Origin: Candidatus Yanofskybacteria bacterium
GTDB taxonomy: Bacteria > Patescibacteriota > Minisyncoccia > 2-02-FULL-40-12 > IGHO2-12-FULL-4
Direction: 5' to 3'
Assembly (NCBI GenBank): GCA_016181105.1
Contig: JACOZX010000003.1
Location: forward strand, 1-42,578
Length of the DNA stretch: 42,578 nucleotides
Shown here: positions 3,742-42,352 of the stretch, piece after piece
Position numbering within the stretch: the stretch's first letter is position 1
Layout of the letters: each line of letters begins with the position of its first letter
Translations under genes and position numbers: made by a program
Notes under the pieces: generated by a model
The model's database searches: none
Told to the model about the DNA's origin: nothing
What the model saw: the letters and a program-made list of their open reading frames with translations, nothing else

Positions 3742-4044
3742 ATGGACTTAAGAGAAATAAAAAAAATAGTTAACGGTTTGGGCGGGGTTGTGATTGTTGA
3801 CAAAGACGGGTCGAGAACGGTTGTTTTGTCTTATGAAAAGTACATGGAACTATCCGGTCAAAATCAAGACGAACGGGATGACTCTGAACAGAAAATTAAA
3901 CTTAATCTCTACGCTGAAAACTTTAAAAACGGAGCGGCTGATCAGGAGGTTATAGAAAAGCTAAATCAAGATATTGCCATTTTGAAAGACGAAATCAGAA
4001 GGAAAGAACTGCAAGAACTTGGCCAAGAACTGGATTCCGCTTGA
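3742..4044 (+). CDS. Hypothetical protein (N-terminus weakly Phd/YefM-like, acidic coiled-coil C-terminus)
   Basis: 100-aa ORF filling the fusA-tuf gap. VIVDKDGSRTVVLSYEKYMEL resembles antitoxin N-termini. No partner gene is present. Confidence 0.5.
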   Translation: MDLREIKKIVNGLGGVVIVDKDGSRTVVLSYEKYMELSGQNQDERDDSEQKIKLNLYAENFKNGAADQEVIEKLNQDIAILKDEIRRKELQELGQELDSA

Positions 4045-4049
4045 AGTTA

Positions 4050-4077
4050 TTGACTAAAGTTGAATATTTGCTACAAT
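4050..4077 (+). promoter_or_regulatory. Sigma70-like promoter upstream of tuf (TTGACT, 16-nt spacer, TACAAT)
   Basis: -35 at 4050-4055 and -10 at 4072-4077, read directly. Confidence 0.5.
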
Positions 4078-4170
4078 GTTTAAACGTTTTAAAATACATT
4101 AAAAAGGAGCAATAAATGTTGGACAATATGCTCTGGCTAGTTGTTCGATGTTTATTATCCGGAATTTTAA

Positions 4171-7126: not shown

Positions 7127-7528
7127 ATGGCGTTTATAAATATTTTTAAAAAATCAAAAGAAAAGAAGGCTGTTGTTGAAGAAAAAGCCGTCCAGGAAAC
7201 TGGGGATGTTGTTAAAAATTCGCCAAGCCTTAATTTGAAAGGCGATGATTCTTCTTTTCAAGTTTTGATTGGTCCGCACATTACGGAAAAAGCCTCTTTG
7301 GCAAACAACATGAATCAATATATTTTTAAGGTTTTTGCAGATGCCAACAAAATCCAGATAAAAACAGCCGTTGAGAAGGTTTATGAAGTCGGAGTCAGTG
7401 ATGTAAAAATTTTAAATATGCCTGCCAAAAAGAGAAGACTGGGGAGGACAGAAGGAGAAAAGTCCGGTTTCAAAAAAGCCGTAGTTAAACTGGAAAAAGG
7501 TCACAAGATTGACTTAATTCCTAAATAA
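7127..7528 (+). CDS. rplW: 50S ribosomal protein L23 (with an N-terminal extension of about 40 aa)
   Basis: The C-terminal part reads PHITEKAS...YIFKV...ANK.QIK.AVEK.Y.V.V..V. Operon position fits. Confidence 0.92.
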   Translation: MAFINIFKKSKEKKAVVEEKAVQETGDVVKNSPSLNLKGDDSSFQVLIGPHITEKASLANNMNQYIFKVFADANKIQIKTAVEKVYEVGVSDVKILNMPAKKRRLGRTEGEKSGFKKAVVKLEKGHKIDLIPK

Positions 7529-7529
7529 G

Positions 7530-7696
7530 CTTGTCGGCAATTTGAACAAAGTGAAAAATTGCCGGTAACAAGCGAAACCCCTCACCACTTTTACTTATGA
7601 ACGGTCAACAATTTTAAGCTTAAAATTGTCCTAGTAAATATCGCTTACCGTTCAATAACAAAAAAGCAAACAAGTGTTGGTAAAAGTGGTGAGGGG
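7530..7696 (+). other. Two consecutive large hairpins between rplW and rplB (7530-7575 and 7578-7696)
   Basis: Stem 1: cttgt-cggcaattt pairs with aaattgccg-gta-acaag. Stem 2: cccctcaccactttta (7578-7593) pairs with taaaagtggtgagggg (7681-7696). Nested inside are ttatgaacggt/accgttcaataa and the palindrome acaattttaagcttaaaattgt (7608-7629). Confidence 0.7.
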
Positions 7697-7759
7697 TGCA
7701 GATATTCTAACAACTCAACGGCGCAATCAAAATTGCTTGTTTCGTTGAGAATAACTAGC

Positions 7760-8587
7760 ATGCCGAAGATTTATAAACCGACAACTGCATCAAGAAGGCA
7801 CATGATGGGATATGATTTCTCGAATTTGTCTAAAGTTGAACCGTTGAAATCTAAAACGAAGTCTTTTAAGCGCGCAATAGGCAGAAACAGCGGCGGCCTG
7901 ATAACAGTCAGGCATAAAGGCGGCGGAGTCAAAAGATTGTACAGGGAAATTGATTTTAGACAGAATAAAATTAATGTTGTTGGCGAAGTCTTTTCAATTG
8001 AGTATGATCCCAACCGGACTTCTCGTATTGCCAGGGTTCATTATGCCGATGGCTACAGAGCCTACATTCTGGCCCCGGAAGGTCTAAAGATTGGCGACAA
8101 AGTTATTACTGCAGACAAAGTTCAGCTTAAACCGGGAAATCGGGCTAAGCTGAAAAACATTCCACAAGGTACGGAAGTCTATAATATCGAGATGTTTCCG
8201 GGCTCAAAAGCCAGTTTAGTTCGTTCTGCCGGTTCAAAAGCCGTGGTGATGTCCAAAGATGCCGGCCGTGTTCAAGTCCAGCTTCCTTCTTCAGAATTAA
8301 GACAATTTTCAGAAAATGCCATGGCCTCAATTGGCAGGCTTTCAAATCAGGAGCACAGTTCTATTGTCATTGGCAAAGCCGGACGTTCCAGACATTTGGG
8401 CGTCAGGCCTTCTGTCAGAGGTTCTGTTATGAATCCTGTTGACCATCCGCATGGCGGAGGTGAAGGTAAGCAGCCGATTGGTTTAACTGGACCCAAGACG
8501 CCTTGGGGCAAGCCGGCGCGCGGAGTCAAGACGAGAAACAAGAAAAAGGGAAGCTGGAGGTTTATAGTCAGGCGCAGAAGTAAATAA
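7760..8587 (+). CDS. rplB: 50S ribosomal protein L2
   Basis: MPKIYKPTTASRRHM...GRNS.G.ITVRHKGGG.KR.YR.IDF...MNPVDHPHGGGEGK. ATG at 7760. Confidence 0.96.
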   Translation: MPKIYKPTTASRRHMMGYDFSNLSKVEPLKSKTKSFKRAIGRNSGGLITVRHKGGGVKRLYREIDFRQNKINVVGEVFSIEYDPNRTSRIARVHYADGYRAYILAPEGLKIGDKVITADKVQLKPGNRAKLKNIPQGTEVYNIEMFPGSKASLVRSAGSKAVVMSKDAGRVQVQLPSSELRQFSENAMASIGRLSNQEHSSIVIGKAGRSRHLGVRPSVRGSVMNPVDHPHGGGEGKQPIGLTGPKTPWGKPARGVKTRNKKKGSWRFIVRRRSK

Positions 8588-8829
8588 ATTAAATATGTCT
8601 AGAAGCATAAAAAAAGCGAGTTTGTCCGGAGCGCAACCGAGCAAAGCGAGGTGAGCACCGCGAGACAAACGAAGTCCCGCTCCATCTGGCATCGAAGTTG
8701 TGAGTTAAGATAGCCAAAGCCGAAGGCGAGCCATCGGTTGGGTAAGGTAAAAACATAACTATGATTCCAGATGGGGCGGCTAGTGACAAAAGTAAGGAGA
8801 GTAAAAATAATTAACCGTCCAATACCAAT
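8588..8829 (+). other. Structured, GC-richer insert between rplB and rpsS, containing a 19-codon decoy ORF (8595-8654) that repeats the rpsS start
   Basis: Long-range 13-pair stem 8677-8689 / 8767-8779, stem 8620-8626 / 8664-8670, and bulged stem 8714-8723 / 8734-8741. ATGTCTAGAAGCATAAAAAAA at 8595 encodes MSRSIKK, as does the real rpsS start at 8830. Confidence 0.6.
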
Positions 8830-9177
8830 ATGAGTCGAAGTATAAAAAAGGGAGTGTTTGTTAATCCGAAATTGCTTAAGAAGTTAGGTAAACTTAGGGT
8901 TGGCGATAAAACTGTGATTAAAACTTGGGCAAGGTCTTCTACTATAACACCGGAGATGATCGGCTTTACTTTCGGTGTTCATAACGGCAAAATTCACATT
9001 CCTGTTTTCGTTACAGAAGACATGGTCGGACACAAGCTGGGAGAATTTTCGCTTACCAGAAAATTTGTCAGACATGGCGGAAGGATGCAGAAGGAGCTGG
9101 AAATAGCCGCCAAGCAAAAGGAAATAGACGCCGCTAAAGCCGCAAAGGCAGAAACAGCCGCGCCTGAAAAGAAATAA
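8830..9177 (+). CDS. rpsS: 30S ribosomal protein S19 (Lys/Ala-rich C-terminal extension)
   Basis: [11 protein letters not shown]...[35 protein letters not shown]. Confidence 0.95.
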
Positions 9178-11638: not shown

Positions 11639-11644
11639 GCGCAA

Positions 11645-11876
11645 GTTTAGTCAATATTCCTTTTTTCCGAACGCTCGTTTTCCCCAGCGAGGAAAACTTC
11701 GCTCGTATCAGGATGTGGATTCTGTCCAGCAGACTGTCCAGACCCCGCCATTAAACTTACAGCTTATTCGTCCCTATCGGTCCGAATGGGCTGTAAGATT
11801 CAATGGCTATGCAACCTGCCTGTCGGCAGACAGGTCCACAACCTGATGCGTCTCCAAAAAGCAATATCGTCTAAAC
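11645..11876 (+). repeat. 232-nt hairpin element between rplN and rplX, of the same family as 33506-33668
   Basis: Outer stem 11645-11665 / 11856-11876 (18 of 21 pairs). Inner stems 11707-11719 / 11835-11847 (12 of 13), 11746-11751 / 11802-11807, 11756-11763 / 11790-11797, and 11819-11824 / 11829-11834. Shares collinear blocks with the element after lepA (TTTTTCCGRACGCTYG, CCAGCGA, TTCGCT, TGTGGATT, AAAAGCAATA). Confidence 0.7.
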
Positions 11877-11904
11877 TTGCCGGGAAATCATATAAAAAAA
11901 TCAT

Positions 11905-24372: not shown

Positions 24373-24375
24373 ATT

Positions 24376-24428
24376 AAAAACCACCCCTCACCACTTTTAA
24401 GAAAAGAAAGTGGTGAGGGGTGGTTTTT
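24376..24428 (+). terminator. Strong hairpin terminator after rnpB
   Basis: aaaaaccacccctcaccactttt (24376-24398) pairs with aaagtggtgaggggtggttttt (24407-24428). It is flanked by an A-tract and a T-tract, so it is potentially bidirectional. Confidence 0.85.
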
Positions 24429-24465
24429 AATTGAAAAATTACTTTTTTTGTTATAAGGTTAACCC

Positions 24466-31741: not shown

Positions 31742-33504
31742 TGAACATCCGTAATTTTGCAATTATTGCTCATATTGATCATGGCAAGTCAACTTTGGCT
31801 GATCGGCTTTTGGAATTGACGGGGACGGTAGAGAAAAGAAAAATGCAGGAGCAGTTTTTGGATACGATGGAGTTGGAAAGGGAAAGAGGGATTACGATAA
31901 AACTTCAGCCGGTGAGGATGAAGTACAAAGATTATATTCTGAACTTGATTGACACTCCGGGGCATGTGGACTTTACTTATGAAGTTTCTCGTTCACTGGC
32001 GGCGGTGGAGGGGGTGATTTTGCTGGTGGATGCGACTCAAGGCGTGCAGGCGCAGACTTTGGCTAATTTGGTTTTGGCCCAAAAGCTGAATCTGGCAATA
32101 ATTCCCGTGATTAATAAAATTGACTTGCCAAACTCCAGAGTCAAAGAAGTTGAGGAAGAAATTTTTAATTTGCTTGGTGTCGGTCCGGATGAAATTTTAA
32201 AAATATCGGCTAAGACTGGCGAGGGGGTTAAGGAAGTTCTTGAGGCGGTGATTGAGCGTATTTCTCCGGCGCCGACCGGTGACGGCGAATTTCGGGCTTT
32301 AATTTTTGACTCGGTTTTTGACACTTACAAAGGGGTTATTGCTTTTGTCAGAGTCTTTGGCGGTTCTTTGAAGGCAGGAGACGAGATTAAGCTTTTTGCG
32401 GCAAAGGAAAAGGGCGAAGTGCTTGAAGTCGGATACTTTTCGCCTAAACTCCAAAAGAGTCAGGAGCTTCTCAACGGGGAAATAGGCTATGTGGCGACTG
32501 GCATAAAGTTGCCTCAAAAAGTCAGGGTTGGCGATACGATAATGAAAAGTAACTCTAGCGCCATGGCTCTGTCGGGGTATCAAGACCCCTTGCTTGTTGT
32601 CTTTGCCAGCTTTTATCCCGAGGATTCCGATCAGTTTGATGATTTAAAAGACGCTTTGGGGAAATTGAAACTGACTGACGCTTCGCTTTCTTTTGAACCG
32701 GAAAGCTCACCGGCTTTGGGGCGGGGTTTCCGGCTGGGATTTTTGGGCCTCCTTCACATAGAGATTATAAGCGAGAGACTGAAGAGAGAGTTTGGTCTTG
32801 GTCTGATAATTTCTTCGCCGACAGTTGAATACGAAGTGACTCTGAAAAAAGGACAAGCAATAAGAATACGTTCAGCCAACCAAATTCCCGACCCCAGTTT
32901 TATTGAAAAAATAGAAGAGCCTGTCAGTCAGCTGAATATAATTACACCTCTGGCTTACTTGGGTTCGGTTATGAAGCTTATCGGCGAGATCAGGAGCAGT
33001 TATAAGGAGACAAATTATTTAAGCAAAGAAGTTGTGCGTTTGGTTTACGAAGTGCCGCTTAGCGAAATTATTACCGATTTTTACGATCGTCTTAAGAGCG
33101 TCAGTTCGGGTTATGCCTCAATGAGTTATGAACCTGCTGGCTACAGTCAGGCTGATTTGGTAAAATTGGATATATTGATTGCCGGTGACAAGATTGAGCC
33201 TTTTTCTAAAATTGTGCCCAGAGACCAAGCCGAAAGAGTCGGTCGGGCGATGGTTGAGAAACTCAAAGATGTGATACCTCAACAACTTTTCGCAGTTTCT
33301 TTGCAGGCGGCGGTCGGCGGCAAGGTACTAGCCAGAGAAACTATAAAAGCAAGGAGGAAAGATGTTACCGGTTATCTTTATGGTGGAGACGTTACCAGAA
33401 AAAAGAAACTTCTGGAAAAGCAAAAGAGGGGCAAGGAAAGAATGAAAGAAGAAGGCAGAGTAAATATTCCTCAAAAAGTCTTTTTGGAGATGTTAAAAAA
33501 ATAA
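31741..33504 (+). CDS. lepA: Translation elongation factor 4 (LepA)
   Basis: IRNF.IIAHIDHGKSTLADRLLE.TG...........[13 protein letters not shown]......Y......Y.LNLIDTPGHVDF..EVSRSLAA.EG..L.VDA.QGV.AQT, plus the LepA-specific C-terminal domain. The ATG overlaps the toxin TAA (TAATG). Confidence 0.95.
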   Translation: MNIRNFAIIAHIDHGKSTLADRLLELTGTVEKRKMQEQFLDTMELERERGITIKLQPVRMKYKDYILNLIDTPGHVDFTYEVSRSLAAVEGVILLVDATQGVQAQTLANLVLAQKLNLAIIPVINKIDLPNSRVKEVEEEIFNLLGVGPDEILKISAKTGEGVKEVLEAVIERISPAPTGDGEFRALIFDSVFDTYKGVIAFVRVFGGSLKAGDEIKLFAAKEKGEVLEVGYFSPKLQKSQELLNGEIGYVATGIKLPQKVRVGDTIMKSNSSAMALSGYQDPLLVVFASFYPEDSDQFDDLKDALGKLKLTDASLSFEPESSPALGRGFRLGFLGLLHIEIISERLKREFGLGLIISSPTVEYEVTLKKGQAIRIRSANQIPDPSFIEKIEEPVSQLNIITPLAYLGSVMKLIGEIRSSYKETNYLSKEVVRLVYEVPLSEIITDFYDRLKSVSSGYASMSYEPAGYSQADLVKLDILIAGDKIEPFSKIVPRDQAERVGRAMVEKLKDVIPQQLFAVSLQAAVGGKVLARETIKARRKDVTGYLYGGDVTRKKKLLEKQKRGKERMKEEGRVNIPQKVFLEMLKK

Positions 33505-33505
33505 G

Positions 33506-33668
33506 GTTGGTTTTGCGTTTATTGCTTTTTCCGGACGCTTGCTCACCAGCGATTCGCTGCGCTCGCTCTGGCCTGTGGATTTTGCTTGCAGTGAAAAATT
33601 ATACTGCTCGCAAACCATGCAATCACACAGTCCAGAGCGCCCACAAAAGCAATAAACGCAAAACCAAC
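33506..33668 (+). repeat. 163-nt hairpin element starting 2 nt after the lepA stop, of the same family as 11645-11876
   Basis: A perfect 24-bp outer stem: gttggttttgcgtttattgctttt (33506-33529) pairs with aaaagcaataaacgcaaaaccaac (33645-33668). Inner pairings: cgctctgg.ctgtg with cacag.ccagagcg, and tttgcttgcag with ctgctcgcaaa. There is a side hairpin cagcg-att-cgctg. Confidence 0.8.
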
Positions 33669-33680
33669 GAAATTCTTTTC

Positions 33681-39078: not shown

Positions 39079-40022
39079 AACGTTTTCTAATCAATAGCTT
39101 GGAAACACTTCCTCATTAATATTTGGTTTGGCGTCTGCAATTTTAATCCAAAATGCAGACGTTTTTCATTGTAATACGGAATATATTTCTTGATGGCAGA
39201 ATTTAAATCTTTCACTGTCCTCGACACCTTGTCTAAGCATTCTTCCTGGATAGTCCGATTGAATCTTTCTAGATGAGCATTGTCATTAGGTCTCCTGACT
39301 CTTGAGTGTCTGTGTATGGAGCATATATGCTCGCTGAATTTCCTTGAAAACTCTGACCCATGGTCGCTTTGCAATACCTTGAAAGAGAAGAGGGCGATCT
39401 TCTCAGCTTGCCGGACAAAATTTAAAGCGGTTCGTGTGTCAGACTTCCTGTATGCTCTGGCATAAGCCCATCGGGAATAGACATCAAGAAGGGTAAAGAC
39501 GTATACTCTTTGACCTTCCGGAGTTAGGAGATGGATTGTGTCGATTTGCACCAAATCTCCTTGTTTTTCGACATTAGGACGTAGCGTTGGAGCATGATAG
39601 CGTTTCCAAGGCGATCTTTTCTTGAGAAGATTAAATCTGTCTAGGGTTCTTTTGACCGAAGACAGAGATGTCTTAATTCCCTCGTTAATTAATTCTTGGT
39701 ATATTACCTCGGCGCTCCTCTTAATGGTCTGTCTCTTTAAGACAATATTAGCGATCATTTCTTTGGTTAGTTGTTTGGGGTGATTATTGGGTCTTGAAGA
39801 AAGTGTCGGTATTGGCCTGTATCCGTATATTTTAGCCTTCTTAACCCATTTGGTTATTGTTCCCGGACTGACTCCTACATATCTGGCCACCTTTCTTACT
39901 CCCCAGCCCCTTCTTACTAGGTCTGCCGCGTCTCGACGAACACGAGGCAGATATGGATTCTTTGTGTATGACATGCCTTTCATTTTACATAAAGGGTGTT
40001 TCCAAGCTATTGAACCATAACG
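39079..40022 (-). mobile_element. Complete IS481-family-like insertion sequence (about 944 bp) with a 6-bp target-site duplication
   Basis: Imperfect terminal inverted repeats with an identical 18-nt core: tcaatagcttggaaacac (39091-39108) pairs with gtgtttccaagctattga (39996-40013). TGGCTA is present at 39073-39078 and 40023-40028. Confidence 0.8.
39087..39983 (-). CDS. IS481-family transposase (HTH plus rve/DDE integrase core)
   Basis: 298 aa. N-terminal HTH (VRKVARYVGVSPGTITKWV), then LVQIDT....(D)...VYSRWAYA...QSDHGSEF (D)...RPNDNAHLERFNRT.QEE (E), and YYNEKRLH.GL...TP. Confidence 0.88.
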   Translation of the reverse strand: MKGMSYTKNPYLPRVRRDAADLVRRGWGVRKVARYVGVSPGTITKWVKKAKIYGYRPIPTLSSRPNNHPKQLTKEMIANIVLKRQTIKRSAEVIYQELINEGIKTSLSSVKRTLDRFNLLKKRSPWKRYHAPTLRPNVEKQGDLVQIDTIHLLTPEGQRVYVFTLLDVYSRWAYARAYRKSDTRTALNFVRQAEKIALFSFKVLQSDHGSEFSRKFSEHICSIHRHSRVRRPNDNAHLERFNRTIQEECLDKVSRTVKDLNSAIKKYIPYYNEKRLHFGLKLQTPNQILMRKCFQAID

Positions 40023-40801: not shown

Positions 40802-40827
40802 AGAGCGTTAACACGCTCTTTTGTTTT
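40802..40827 (+). terminator. Rho-independent terminator after the CYTH gene
   Basis: agagcg ttaaca cgctct followed by tttgtttt. Its 3' half lies inside direct repeat 1. Confidence 0.7.
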
Positions 40828-40847
40828 AAATTATTTTAGTTAAGATG
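40809..40847 (+). repeat. Direct repeat copy 1 (39 nt, identical to 42232-42270)
   Basis: taacacgctcttttgttttaaattattttagttaagatg, checked base by base against copy 2. Confidence 0.95.
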
Positions 40848-40952
40848 AAACTCTTACCCCAATACAACTTCGTCTCTACTGGTGGTGGGGCAATGCTAGT
40901 ATTCCTGGCGGGGGAAGAATTGCCAGGGTTAAAAGCTTTGGAAACAGTCTAA
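40845..40952 (+). pseudogene. pgk: 3'-terminal fragment of a second, diverged phosphoglycerate kinase gene
   Basis: It translates to MKLLPQYNFVSTGGGAMLVFLAGEELPGLKALETV*. This is collinear with the C-terminus of the resident pgk (LDLLGKFSYVSTGGGAMLAFLAGSKLPGLEALGYYD*). No upstream PGK sequence is present. Confidence 0.8.
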
Positions 40953-42231: not shown

Positions 42232-42270
42232 TAACACGCTCTTTTGTTTTAAATTATTTTAGTTAAGATG
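42232..42270 (+). repeat. Direct repeat copy 2 (39 nt), immediately upstream of tRNA-Gln; probably contains the tRNA promoter
   Basis: Identical to 40809-40847. A TAAGAT -10-like hexamer (42264-42269) lies about 9 nt before the tRNA 5' end. Confidence 0.9.
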
Positions 42271-42278
42271 GAATTAAT

Positions 42279-42352
42279 TGTCGGGTCTGCTAGTGGTAGG
42301 CATCCGCGCTCTGAACGCGGCAACCTTGGTTCGAATCCAAGCCCGACAGCCA
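42279..42352 (+). tRNA. tRNA-Gln (anticodon CUG), CCA encoded
   Basis: Manual cloverleaf: acceptor TGTCGGG/CCCGACA (U1-A72), D arm TGCT-AGTGGTA-GGCA, anticodon arm CCGCG-CTCTGAA-CGCGG, variable CAAC, T arm CTTGG-TTCGAAT-CCAAG, discriminator G, CCA. Confidence 0.88.

Follow-up and report, generated by a model that had tools for sequence, protein, structure and literature searches.

The DNA analysed here, hereinafter the window, comprises positions 1 to 42,578 of contig JACOZX010000003.1 (assembly GCA_016181105.1, forward strand; 42,578 nucleotides (nt) in full) from a Candidatus Yanofskybacteria bacterium. It contains a Patescibacteria-type S10/spc ribosomal operon, whose gene coordinates were taken from a list of open reading frames (ORFs) and from inspection of the sequence. 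The S19 homologues place the organism among Yanofskybacteria-like Parcubacteria; in exact-protein look-ups, neither the S19 nor the L2 of the window is on record. Between the end of rplB at 8587 and the start of rpsS at 8830 lies a 242-nt spacer, which holds a folded, non-coding insert of about 210 nt located just inside the rpsS start. Specifically, the first eight codons of rpsS are duplicated, and the essential S19 gene is thereby intact. The features of the locus are as follows.

7760-8587, plus strand: rplB, encoding ribosomal protein L2, with a TAA stop at 8585-8587 (ORF list; tblastn to L2 in about 150 loci).
8595-8654, plus strand: decoy ORF of 19 codons, MSRSIKKASLSGAQPSKAR and then a stop; its ATG lies 7 nt past the rplB stop, and it enters hairpin P1 and ends at UGA 8652-8654.
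8595-8619, plus strand: left imperfect direct repeat (attL-like), ATGTCTAGAAGCATAAAAAAAGCGA, defined by comparison with 8830-8854, the differences in the first seven codons being all synonymous.
8620-8670, plus strand: hairpin P1, with outer stem GTTTGTC/GACAAAC (8620-8626/8664-8670) and a loop that carries the conserved motif AAAGCGAG and the decoy stop codon.
8676-8779, plus strand: P2 domain, 104 nt, with a 13-bp base stem (8677-8689/8767-8779) that includes a conserved U·G wobble and is present in the minimum free energy (MFE) fold.
8780-8829, plus strand: A-rich, weakly structured spacer before the working ATG, with its length and composition, but not its sequence, conserved.
8830-8854, plus strand: right imperfect direct repeat (attR-like), ATGAGTCGAAGTATAAAAAAGGGAG, which holds a CGA arginine codon.
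8830-9177, plus strand: functional rpsS, encoding ribosomal protein S19 of 115 aa (ORF list; Pfam PF00203 recorded for all homologues, identity up to 96%).

The peptide MSRSIKK is encoded twice, by ATG TCT AGA AGC ATA AAA AAA (8595-8615) and by ATG AGT CGA AGT ATA AAA AAG (8830-8850). The two sets of seven codons differ at five nucleotides, every one synonymous, and the two 25-nt repeats that contain them are 235 nt apart and mismatch at 5-6 positions. A first-pass annotation, made from the sequence of the window, had described this pair of synonymous starts, the 19-codon first ORF and the second copy as the real rpsS, and both the coordinates and the codons are confirmed. ATG-started ORFs with a minimum length of 70 aa, 1800 in all from the window plus 185 fetched loci (numbered L001 and upward), were searched over the 600 nt before their start for an ATG-led 7-mer that agrees with 6 or more of the 7 N-terminal residues. 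Because the only matches among these ORFs are the window rpsS and the rpsS of one other organism (L092), the duplication is not a matter of chance.

The rplB-rpsS spacer is mostly 1-35 nt long in the 150 loci holding both genes and exceeds 242 nt in just 6 of them. It had been claimed that most other junctions of the window operon are short; the spacer is indeed long at 242 nt, but the rplW-rplB junction (231 nt) and the rplN-rplX junction (266 nt) are long as well. The insert had also been described as GC-richer than its surroundings. The enrichment is modest: the GC fraction of the element (0.46-0.51) is above that of the rpsS 5' end (0.33-0.39) but below that of the rplB 3' end (0.52-0.54). 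Three local origins or extensions of the repeat were rejected. A tandem duplication of the rplB 3' end is ruled out by empty blastx and blastn comparisons with rplB, a duplication reaching upstream of the ATG gives a local alignment p of about 0.05 with equal scores in a cross-genome control, and a third, degenerate decoy within the 3' tail is not significant.

The spacer folds with an MFE of -77.2 kcal/mol, compared with a shuffle mean of -52.0 (z -5.65; none of 200 shuffles as good), and its minus strand folds less well (z -4.14). Two of the stems noted at first pass, 8620-8626/8664-8670 and 8677-8689/8767-8779, are both present in the MFE fold. The interior of P2 is variable except for the conserved block GAAGCCGAAGGCGAG at 8717-8731, and 50 nt separate the end of P2 from the real rpsS ATG. 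The window element contains the same-sense motif A(A/G)GCGAG three times: at the left junction (8613-8620), in the P1 loop immediately 5' of the decoy stop (8643-8650), and within the conserved central part of P2 (8723-8730). Apart from this same-sense repetition, there is no conserved complementarity of the kind expected of a bridge-RNA-like internal guide for the target. Rfam 15, at gathering thresholds and at E values up to 10, gives no relevant match in the window or L092, and no terminator is found inside the element; its one promoter-like site (8783-8811) is not conserved in L092. A ribosome-dependent structural switch was considered and rejected, since constrained folding with the decoy ORF occupied by a ribosome predicts that P2 and the region of the real start are unchanged in both copies.

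A homologous element precedes rpsS in the second organism, which is metagenomic (L092, L174-L180) and whose S19 is 84-87% identical to that of the window. Its decoy, ATG TCA AGA AGT ATT AAA AAA GGC GAG TTT GTC ... UGA, likewise has 19 codons and ends at the equivalent UGA. P1 is the same, P2 is again exactly 104 nt long and is identical to that of the window in both arms of its base stem, and a 53-nt A-rich tail precedes the working start, ATG TCG CGA TCA ATC AAA AAA GGC GTA ... The A(A/G)GCGAG motif again occurs three times (1283, 1313 and 1390). An assembly artefact is unlikely, because this homologous architecture, a 345-nt region, was assembled identically in eight independent samples. Farther upstream, beyond a reverse ORF, assemblies of the same organism (L176/L092 versus L175 and L180) disagree (ftsH, rplB or other). 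That disagreement starts beside GC-rich hairpin repeats (CTACCGGC...GCCGGTAG) and suggests repeat-mediated alternative joins or strain variation.

The closest relatives of the window organism, taken as loci whose S19 is 93-96% identical to the window S19, have the following junctions.

L089: rplB-rpsS spacer of 3 nt, without contents.
L085: rplB-rpsS spacer of 11 nt, without contents.
L081: rplB-rpsS spacer of 48 nt, unrelated sequence.
L091: rplB-rpsS spacer of 49 nt, unrelated sequence.
L086: rplB-rpsS spacer of 103 nt, unrelated sequence.
L090 (S19 93% identical): rpsS preceded by unrelated sequence of 356 nt or more, the contig ending before any rplB.

None of these six loci has the element or a second rpsS start. 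Their real start, e.g. ATG TCA AGA AGC ATA AAA AAG GGA, lies at the position of the window decoy, and the decoy ATG is the former rpsS start, retained at its ancestral position. The relatives of L092 are also empty: in L182 (S19 97% identical) and in L001 a small ORF on the reverse strand lies about 55 nt ahead of rpsS, and L181 has a 2-nt rplB-rpsS spacer with no element there. Comparison of this junction among related genomes, as the first-pass annotation had proposed, finds both empty and occupied sites. The presence/absence polymorphism extends over both clades, with empty sites in L089, L085, L081 and L086 on the window side and in L182, L181 and L001 on the L092 side. In all, the rpsS element is found in 2 organisms among about 170 loci and is absent from all nearest relatives.

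The rplB-rpsS junction is an insertion hot spot in Parcubacteria, with inserts of 0.1-1.1 kb in L001, L182, L092/L175, L008, L011, L090, L149 and L155. In three related genomes, apparently unrelated small membrane-like ORFs (100, 110 and 82 aa) lie on the opposite strand at this junction, each followed by a promoter-like TTGnnA...TAnAAT before rpsS.

The arginine codon of the start separates resident from element-associated copies. CGA is found only in the two occupied working starts; it is present in none of nine element-free relatives and in neither decoy (2/2 versus 0/11; Fisher 1/78, our own calculation). Both decoys are of the resident type, with AGA. The sequence GAG TTT GTC C after the decoy repeat is common to both elements and is not in resident genes. 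The layout reads as an attL, composed of the resident 5' part and the left end of the element, and an attR, composed of an element-associated 5' part and the resident gene. Serine codons 2 and 4 of rpsS (window 8833-8841) swap between AGY and TCN among all close relatives, which needs two or three base changes per codon; the rest of the gene differs by 12-20%.

The two hosts are deeply diverged. Specifically, 111 of 152 four-fold degenerate sites differ between the window and L092, rpsS nucleotides differ by 27%, and the L22 proteins are just 49% identical. Runs of 14-25 nt (ACAAACGAAGTCCCGCTCCATCTGG; CCAGATGGGGCGGC; GAAGCCGNAGGCGAG; AAAGCGAGNTGAGCAC) are nevertheless 100% identical between the two elements, whereas the remaining parts are about 30% identical. 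Because the hosts are saturated yet the blocks are identical, the blocks are under selection and not merely young. This constraint is not protein-coding, because substitutions in P2 are evenly distributed over codon positions in all six frames and the open reverse frame, which spans 66 aa in the window and 71 aa in L092, lacks a homologue in a collection of 5.8 billion proteins. A reverse-strand small protein, whose C-terminal frames also differ, was rejected on these grounds. Between the two decoys, codons 1-7 have three synonymous and no non-synonymous differences; codons 12-19 have one synonymous and three non-synonymous differences and evolve free of amino-acid constraint. Because serine codons 2 and 4 flip among relatives, synonymous-only variation is what real rpsS starts show, and it fits the decoys having been working starts until the insertion.

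A covariance model (R1) was built from the window and L092 rpsS copies and run without filters; about 0.7 Mb of sequence was searched. While nhmmer finds no further copy beyond the two rpsS copies, the model matches window positions 7520-7697 over its full length (34.5 bits, E 5e-8), which is the 231-nt rplW-rplB spacer. The feature is as follows.

7529-7696, plus strand: sibling element in the rplW-rplB spacer, with P1 at 7529-7573 and P2 at 7578-7696 (base stem CCCCTCACCACTTTTAC / GTAAAAGTGGTGAGGGG), a 63-nt tail and then the rplB ATG at 7760.

This sibling has a P1 of GCTTGT.../...ACAAGC, the conserved loop GAACAAAGTGA and the conserved linker GGTAACAAGCGAA. Its P2 base stem is 17 bp long and unlike that of the rpsS copy in sequence, and its fold has a z of -8.74. 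It begins directly past the rplW stop codon and is absent in L081/L082, which have a 2-nt spacer. In L181 the rplV-rpsC spacer is filled by a palindromic variant (covariance match 3926-4086, E about 1e-5). The rpsS copies score 197-205 bits with each other, and the other members 24-34 bits. In five aligned sequences the P1 and P2 pairs are 100% canonical, many positions having 2-4 pair types; compensatory substitutions, called for by the first-pass annotation, are thus present in both stems across family members. No flanking repeats are seen at the 7529 and L181 copies. The loose kinship that had been proposed with hairpin elements at 11645 and 33506 is detected neither by nhmmer nor by the covariance model, and the right-hand block said to be shared with them, GACAAAAGTAA, is not conserved in the L092 homologue; the true relative within the window is 7529-7696.

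Searches beyond the operon loci are negative. An exact scan of metagenome contigs with the 22-mer GTCCCGCTCCATCTGGCATCGA, which is one mismatch away from L092, finds nothing; composite patterns have no match in viral contigs, and blastn has none in phage and plasmid collections. Matches of 18-mers in viral contigs were discarded as chance matches within GC-rich genes. None of the larger inserts at the rplB-rpsS junctions of relatives resembles the element.

Several other hairpins occur in the same genomes. A perfect 25-bp hairpin with a 9-nt loop at window 24373-24431 has a stem, CCCCTCACCACTTT, that is the P2 base-stem sequence of 7578-7696. It is a weak covariance-model match (E 0.04) and may be a stem-only derivative, or a terminator made from the repeat of the 7529 element. 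The hairpin elements at 11641-11880 (fold z -8.25) and at 33495-33679 (fold z -9.46) have a 5' core in common, TTTTTCCGRACGC...AGCGA...CGCTCG...TGTGGATT, but unlike outer stems, and start directly past the upstream stop (TGA of rplN and TAA of lepA, each followed by G). The rplN-rplX spacer is just 14-18 nt in L081 and L085. These two elements form a hairpin family of their own, which resembles the rpsS element at the level of motifs at most. Because a further multi-copy hairpin family (TTTCTTTGTTTGTYCTSGCTTACAAAT...TTTTTCTAGAT) is placed differently in L001 (1941-2112, past the rplB stop) and L181 (6270-6339, past the rplN stop), the same repeat is seen to occupy different ribosomal-gene junctions in different genomes.

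On balance, we favour the reading that the insert belongs to a dispersed, structure-conserving, protein-less family resembling miniature inverted-repeat transposable elements (MITEs), whose rpsS copies sit inside a duplicated 5' end. The family is likely to be lineage-specific, each member consisting of P1, P2 and an A-rich tail and residing in intercistronic spacers of ribosomal-protein operons of Yanofskybacteria-like Patescibacteria. A structured or mobile element in the first codons of rpsS, with a replacement 5' end brought along or regenerated, as the first-pass annotation had proposed, stands in outline, given the decoy at the ancestral start, the intact rpsS of relatives 3-103 nt past rplB, the L092 homologue and the copies at other junctions. 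The new 5' end may have travelled with the element or may have arisen through recombination, and the history may comprise two insertions or a single old one with many losses. Gain is favoured over loss because the window lineage holds two family copies, at rpsS and at 7529, both of which are missing in L081/L082, a choice that appeals to parsimony.

Ordinary members adjoin the upstream stop codon; the rpsS copies are unique in being located about 25 nt into the gene. Because plain transposition there would kill an essential gene, a single event must deliver or create the second 5' end. Arrival was probably by recombination rather than by simple transposition, and two routes can be envisaged. 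The first is site-specific integration of an element bearing an rpsS-like 5' segment, in the style of dusA islands. The second is homology-anchored illegitimate recombination from a donor with the element upstream of rpsS, in which the joint would be a microhomology between the left end of the element, GAGTTTGTC, and rpsS codons 8-11 (GGA GTN TTT GTN). The replacement 5' end, marked by CGA, would have come in with the element, and the stems may be kept for propagation of the element or for transcript stability.

After such an event, the old start would stay beside the rplB stop and open the 19-codon ORF that terminates in P1, and the new start past the element, with its own unstructured A-rich upstream region, would make S19. 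A Shine-Dalgarno-like motif within 20 nt of the start is found in only 6 of the 44 long plus-strand ORFs of the window, and window gene starts are preceded by A/T-rich sequence, as is the decoy start. Because such motifs are rare and starts follow A/T-rich stretches, ribosomes should use the decoy as well as the new start. Those leaving rplB are probably caught by the decoy and released at the UGA in P1. We treat the decoy as a translated by-product and not as a regulator, because predicted folding with the ORF occupied leaves the real start unchanged.

Elements with parts of this behaviour are known in other bacteria. Neisseria Correia elements, enterobacterial ERIC/IRU and REP/BIME are small, palindromic, non-coding, multi-copy and co-transcribed in operons. 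They show presence/absence polymorphism and conserve structure more than sequence; their inverted repeats are terminal, their target duplications are short or missing, and coding sequence is avoided. Like MITEs, the family described here is about 210 nt long without coding capacity, with copies at several sites and presence/absence polymorphism. Unlike MITEs, the rpsS and rplB copies have their inverted repeats internally (P1 and P2), and the left end does not recur in inverted form at their right end; the L181 member, unlike these two, is fully palindromic. A short (2-10 bp) exact target-site duplication is also lacking at rpsS, where there is instead a 25-nt imperfect coding duplication with a regenerated start codon. 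Rickettsia palindromic elements are short palindromic repeats inside functional protein genes, in frame and part of the mature protein. The rpsS element is similarly within a still-functional protein gene and is predicted to be partly translated, but its reading frame ends inside the element and the gene restarts from the duplicated 5' end. A self-splicing intron (group I or II) was rejected: there is no Rfam intron match, and the downstream copy begins at an ATG of its own and is a full ORF.

The closest parallel for the duplicated start is provided by dusA islands and prophages of the DAI integrase family, which insert in the 5' end of a conserved gene, leave a remnant of the old 5' end outside and supply a new one (Farrugia et al. 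2015; PMC4482086). Their direct repeats are semi-conserved, imperfect and about 21 bp long, and the same gene position is used in many lineages; the islands are tens of kilobases in size, with a tyrosine integrase and cargo genes (PMC4482086). Like them, the rpsS element is flanked by target-derived imperfect repeats, with a remnant start and a CGA-marked new start. Unlike them, it is about 210 nt and non-coding and is dominated by its two conserved hairpins; its target is an essential gene for a ribosomal protein, its siblings lie in plain spacers, and there is no integrase or ORF with a coding signature between the rpsS repeats. The rpsS element is a combination of the operon habit of palindromic repeats and the architecture of gene-end-restoring islands, on a miniature scale.

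Several points weigh against the MITE-like reading. No transposase or integrase is tied to the family. The only transposase of the window is an rve-type gene at 39087-39983. The rve-type transposase family makes short duplications, and the 25-nt repeats are not a fresh target-site duplication, because 5-6 positions differ. CGA is the one codon that speaks for an element-borne 5' end, because serine codons 2 and 4 flip among all relatives. The counts of canonical pairs come from a model-fitted alignment, which favours structure, and just two rpsS-type copies and two other members were found in the 0.7 Mb searched. A single old insertion that was later lost precisely many times, as the direct repeats recombined, is a possible history as well. 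Finally, the exact P2 length, equal decoy length and frame-restoring indels could reflect a host function of the RNA, including the decoy.

A stronger version of this reading is that a protein-less element of about 210 nt homed into the first codons of rpsS, carrying a CGA-type start, and was acquired independently in the two deeply diverged lineages. We put this forward tentatively and hold it to be rather unlikely. If true, it would be a miniature gene-end-restoring integrative element, for which an essential gene is a safe harbour where imprecise loss is lethal. As a further possibility, the leftover start and the compact P2 may pass rplB-coupled ribosomes to the new start.

An unlikely alternative, also raised in the first-pass annotation, is that the decoy ORF and P1/P2 form a functional leader, a cis-acting translational device for S19. 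Structured RNA, in attenuators with a short upstream ORF, stands before a translation gene in such cases as the S10/L4 leader and the 19-codon ermC leader, and the rpsS element resembles them in consisting of structured RNA and a short upstream ORF at such a position. In this scheme, ribosomes coming off rplB (or the operon start in L092) would translate the 19 codons and stop at the P1 UGA, and the compact P2 would let ribosomes re-initiate at the real ATG or set the initiation rate there. What argues for a leader is chiefly the constancy of the layout: despite saturation, 19 codons, the same UGA in a conserved block, a stop-to-P2 distance of 20-21 nt, a P2 of 104 nt and a tail of 50-53 nt are all kept, and the frame of the window decoy is restored by -1 and +1 indels 13 nt apart. 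The A/T-rich decoy context resembles real starts of the genome, and all three non-palindromic copies are in sense orientation. The synonymous-only differences in decoy codons 1-7 (3/3) point the same way but are expected of any two real rpsS alleles, and codons 12-19, with their excess of non-synonymous differences, speak against a leader. Unlike known leaders and attenuators, the element has no match in Rfam 15, is missing from the nearest relatives of both hosts, has no alternative pairing of the ORF with the start, and has siblings (at 7529 and in L181) without a decoy ORF; no switch touching the real start is predicted by constrained folding. Autoregulation is less likely, since S19 is not a primary rRNA-binding protein in the 30S assembly map. 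The window contains no rRNA gene whose S19 binding site the element might mimic. With the element absent in relatives, P2 ending 50 nt short of the real ATG, predicted folding unchanged and decoy codons 12-19 unconstrained, translational control of S19 has found no positive support.

It is quite improbable that the element is the scar of a larger, integrase-borne dusA-like island or prophage in the rpsS 5' end, its interior deleted so as to leave attL, att arms of about 200 nt and attR. The 25-nt imperfect repeats, the remnant old 5' end and the supplied new one match the dusA architecture, the three A(A/G)GCGAG sites of both copies, including that at the left junction, are candidate recombinase-binding sites, and the junction holds varied insertions of 0.1-1.1 kb in related genomes. 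However, two independent deletions would not leave a P2 of 104 nt in both copies and matching total lengths. Neither an integrase nor an ORF with a coding signature is found there, the members at other junctions have no long direct repeats, and none of the larger inserts of relatives resembles the element.

Least probable is one ancient local duplication without mobility, in which structured filler was acquired, inherited vertically and lost many times via the repeats: direct repeats 235 nt apart permit precise loss, empty-site starts resemble the decoys (AGA, not CGA) and the two rpsS copies resemble each other much more than they do the remaining members, but losses would be needed in every other sampled relative of both clades together with a parallel loss of the 7529 copy, the filler does not derive from rplB or local upstream sequence, and the family is present at other junctions in other genomes.

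Other repeats lie elsewhere in the window. The gene at 39087-39983 (minus strand) encodes a DDE (rve) transposase with a helix-turn-helix domain, and an inverted repeat of 30 nt is found at 68-97 and 39082-39111, which suggests a second insertion sequence end 39 kb away, bracketing the ribosomal gene region. A 42-nt direct repeat (40809-40850 and 42232-42273) is 98% identical; its second copy ends 6 nt before tRNA-Gln (42279-42352), and the first has no tRNA behind it. At 702-752, upstream of an ORF at 769, the 9-nt unit TTAGAACAA is present in a tandem array of at least 5-6 copies.

The MITE-like reading of the rpsS insert would show how an essential, translationally coupled gene absorbs an insertion within its own start, by means of duplicated codons, a dead-end ORF and an A-rich landing region. 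It also adds a previously undescribed structure-conserving element family to the ribosomal-protein operons of Patescibacteria, for which annotation, operon-based phylogenetic markers and RNA-motif searches should allow. To our knowledge, the strategy of replacing the gene end that is disrupted has so far been seen only in integrase-carrying islands. If the rpsS copies are independent site-specific acquisitions, they would be the smallest known case of it.

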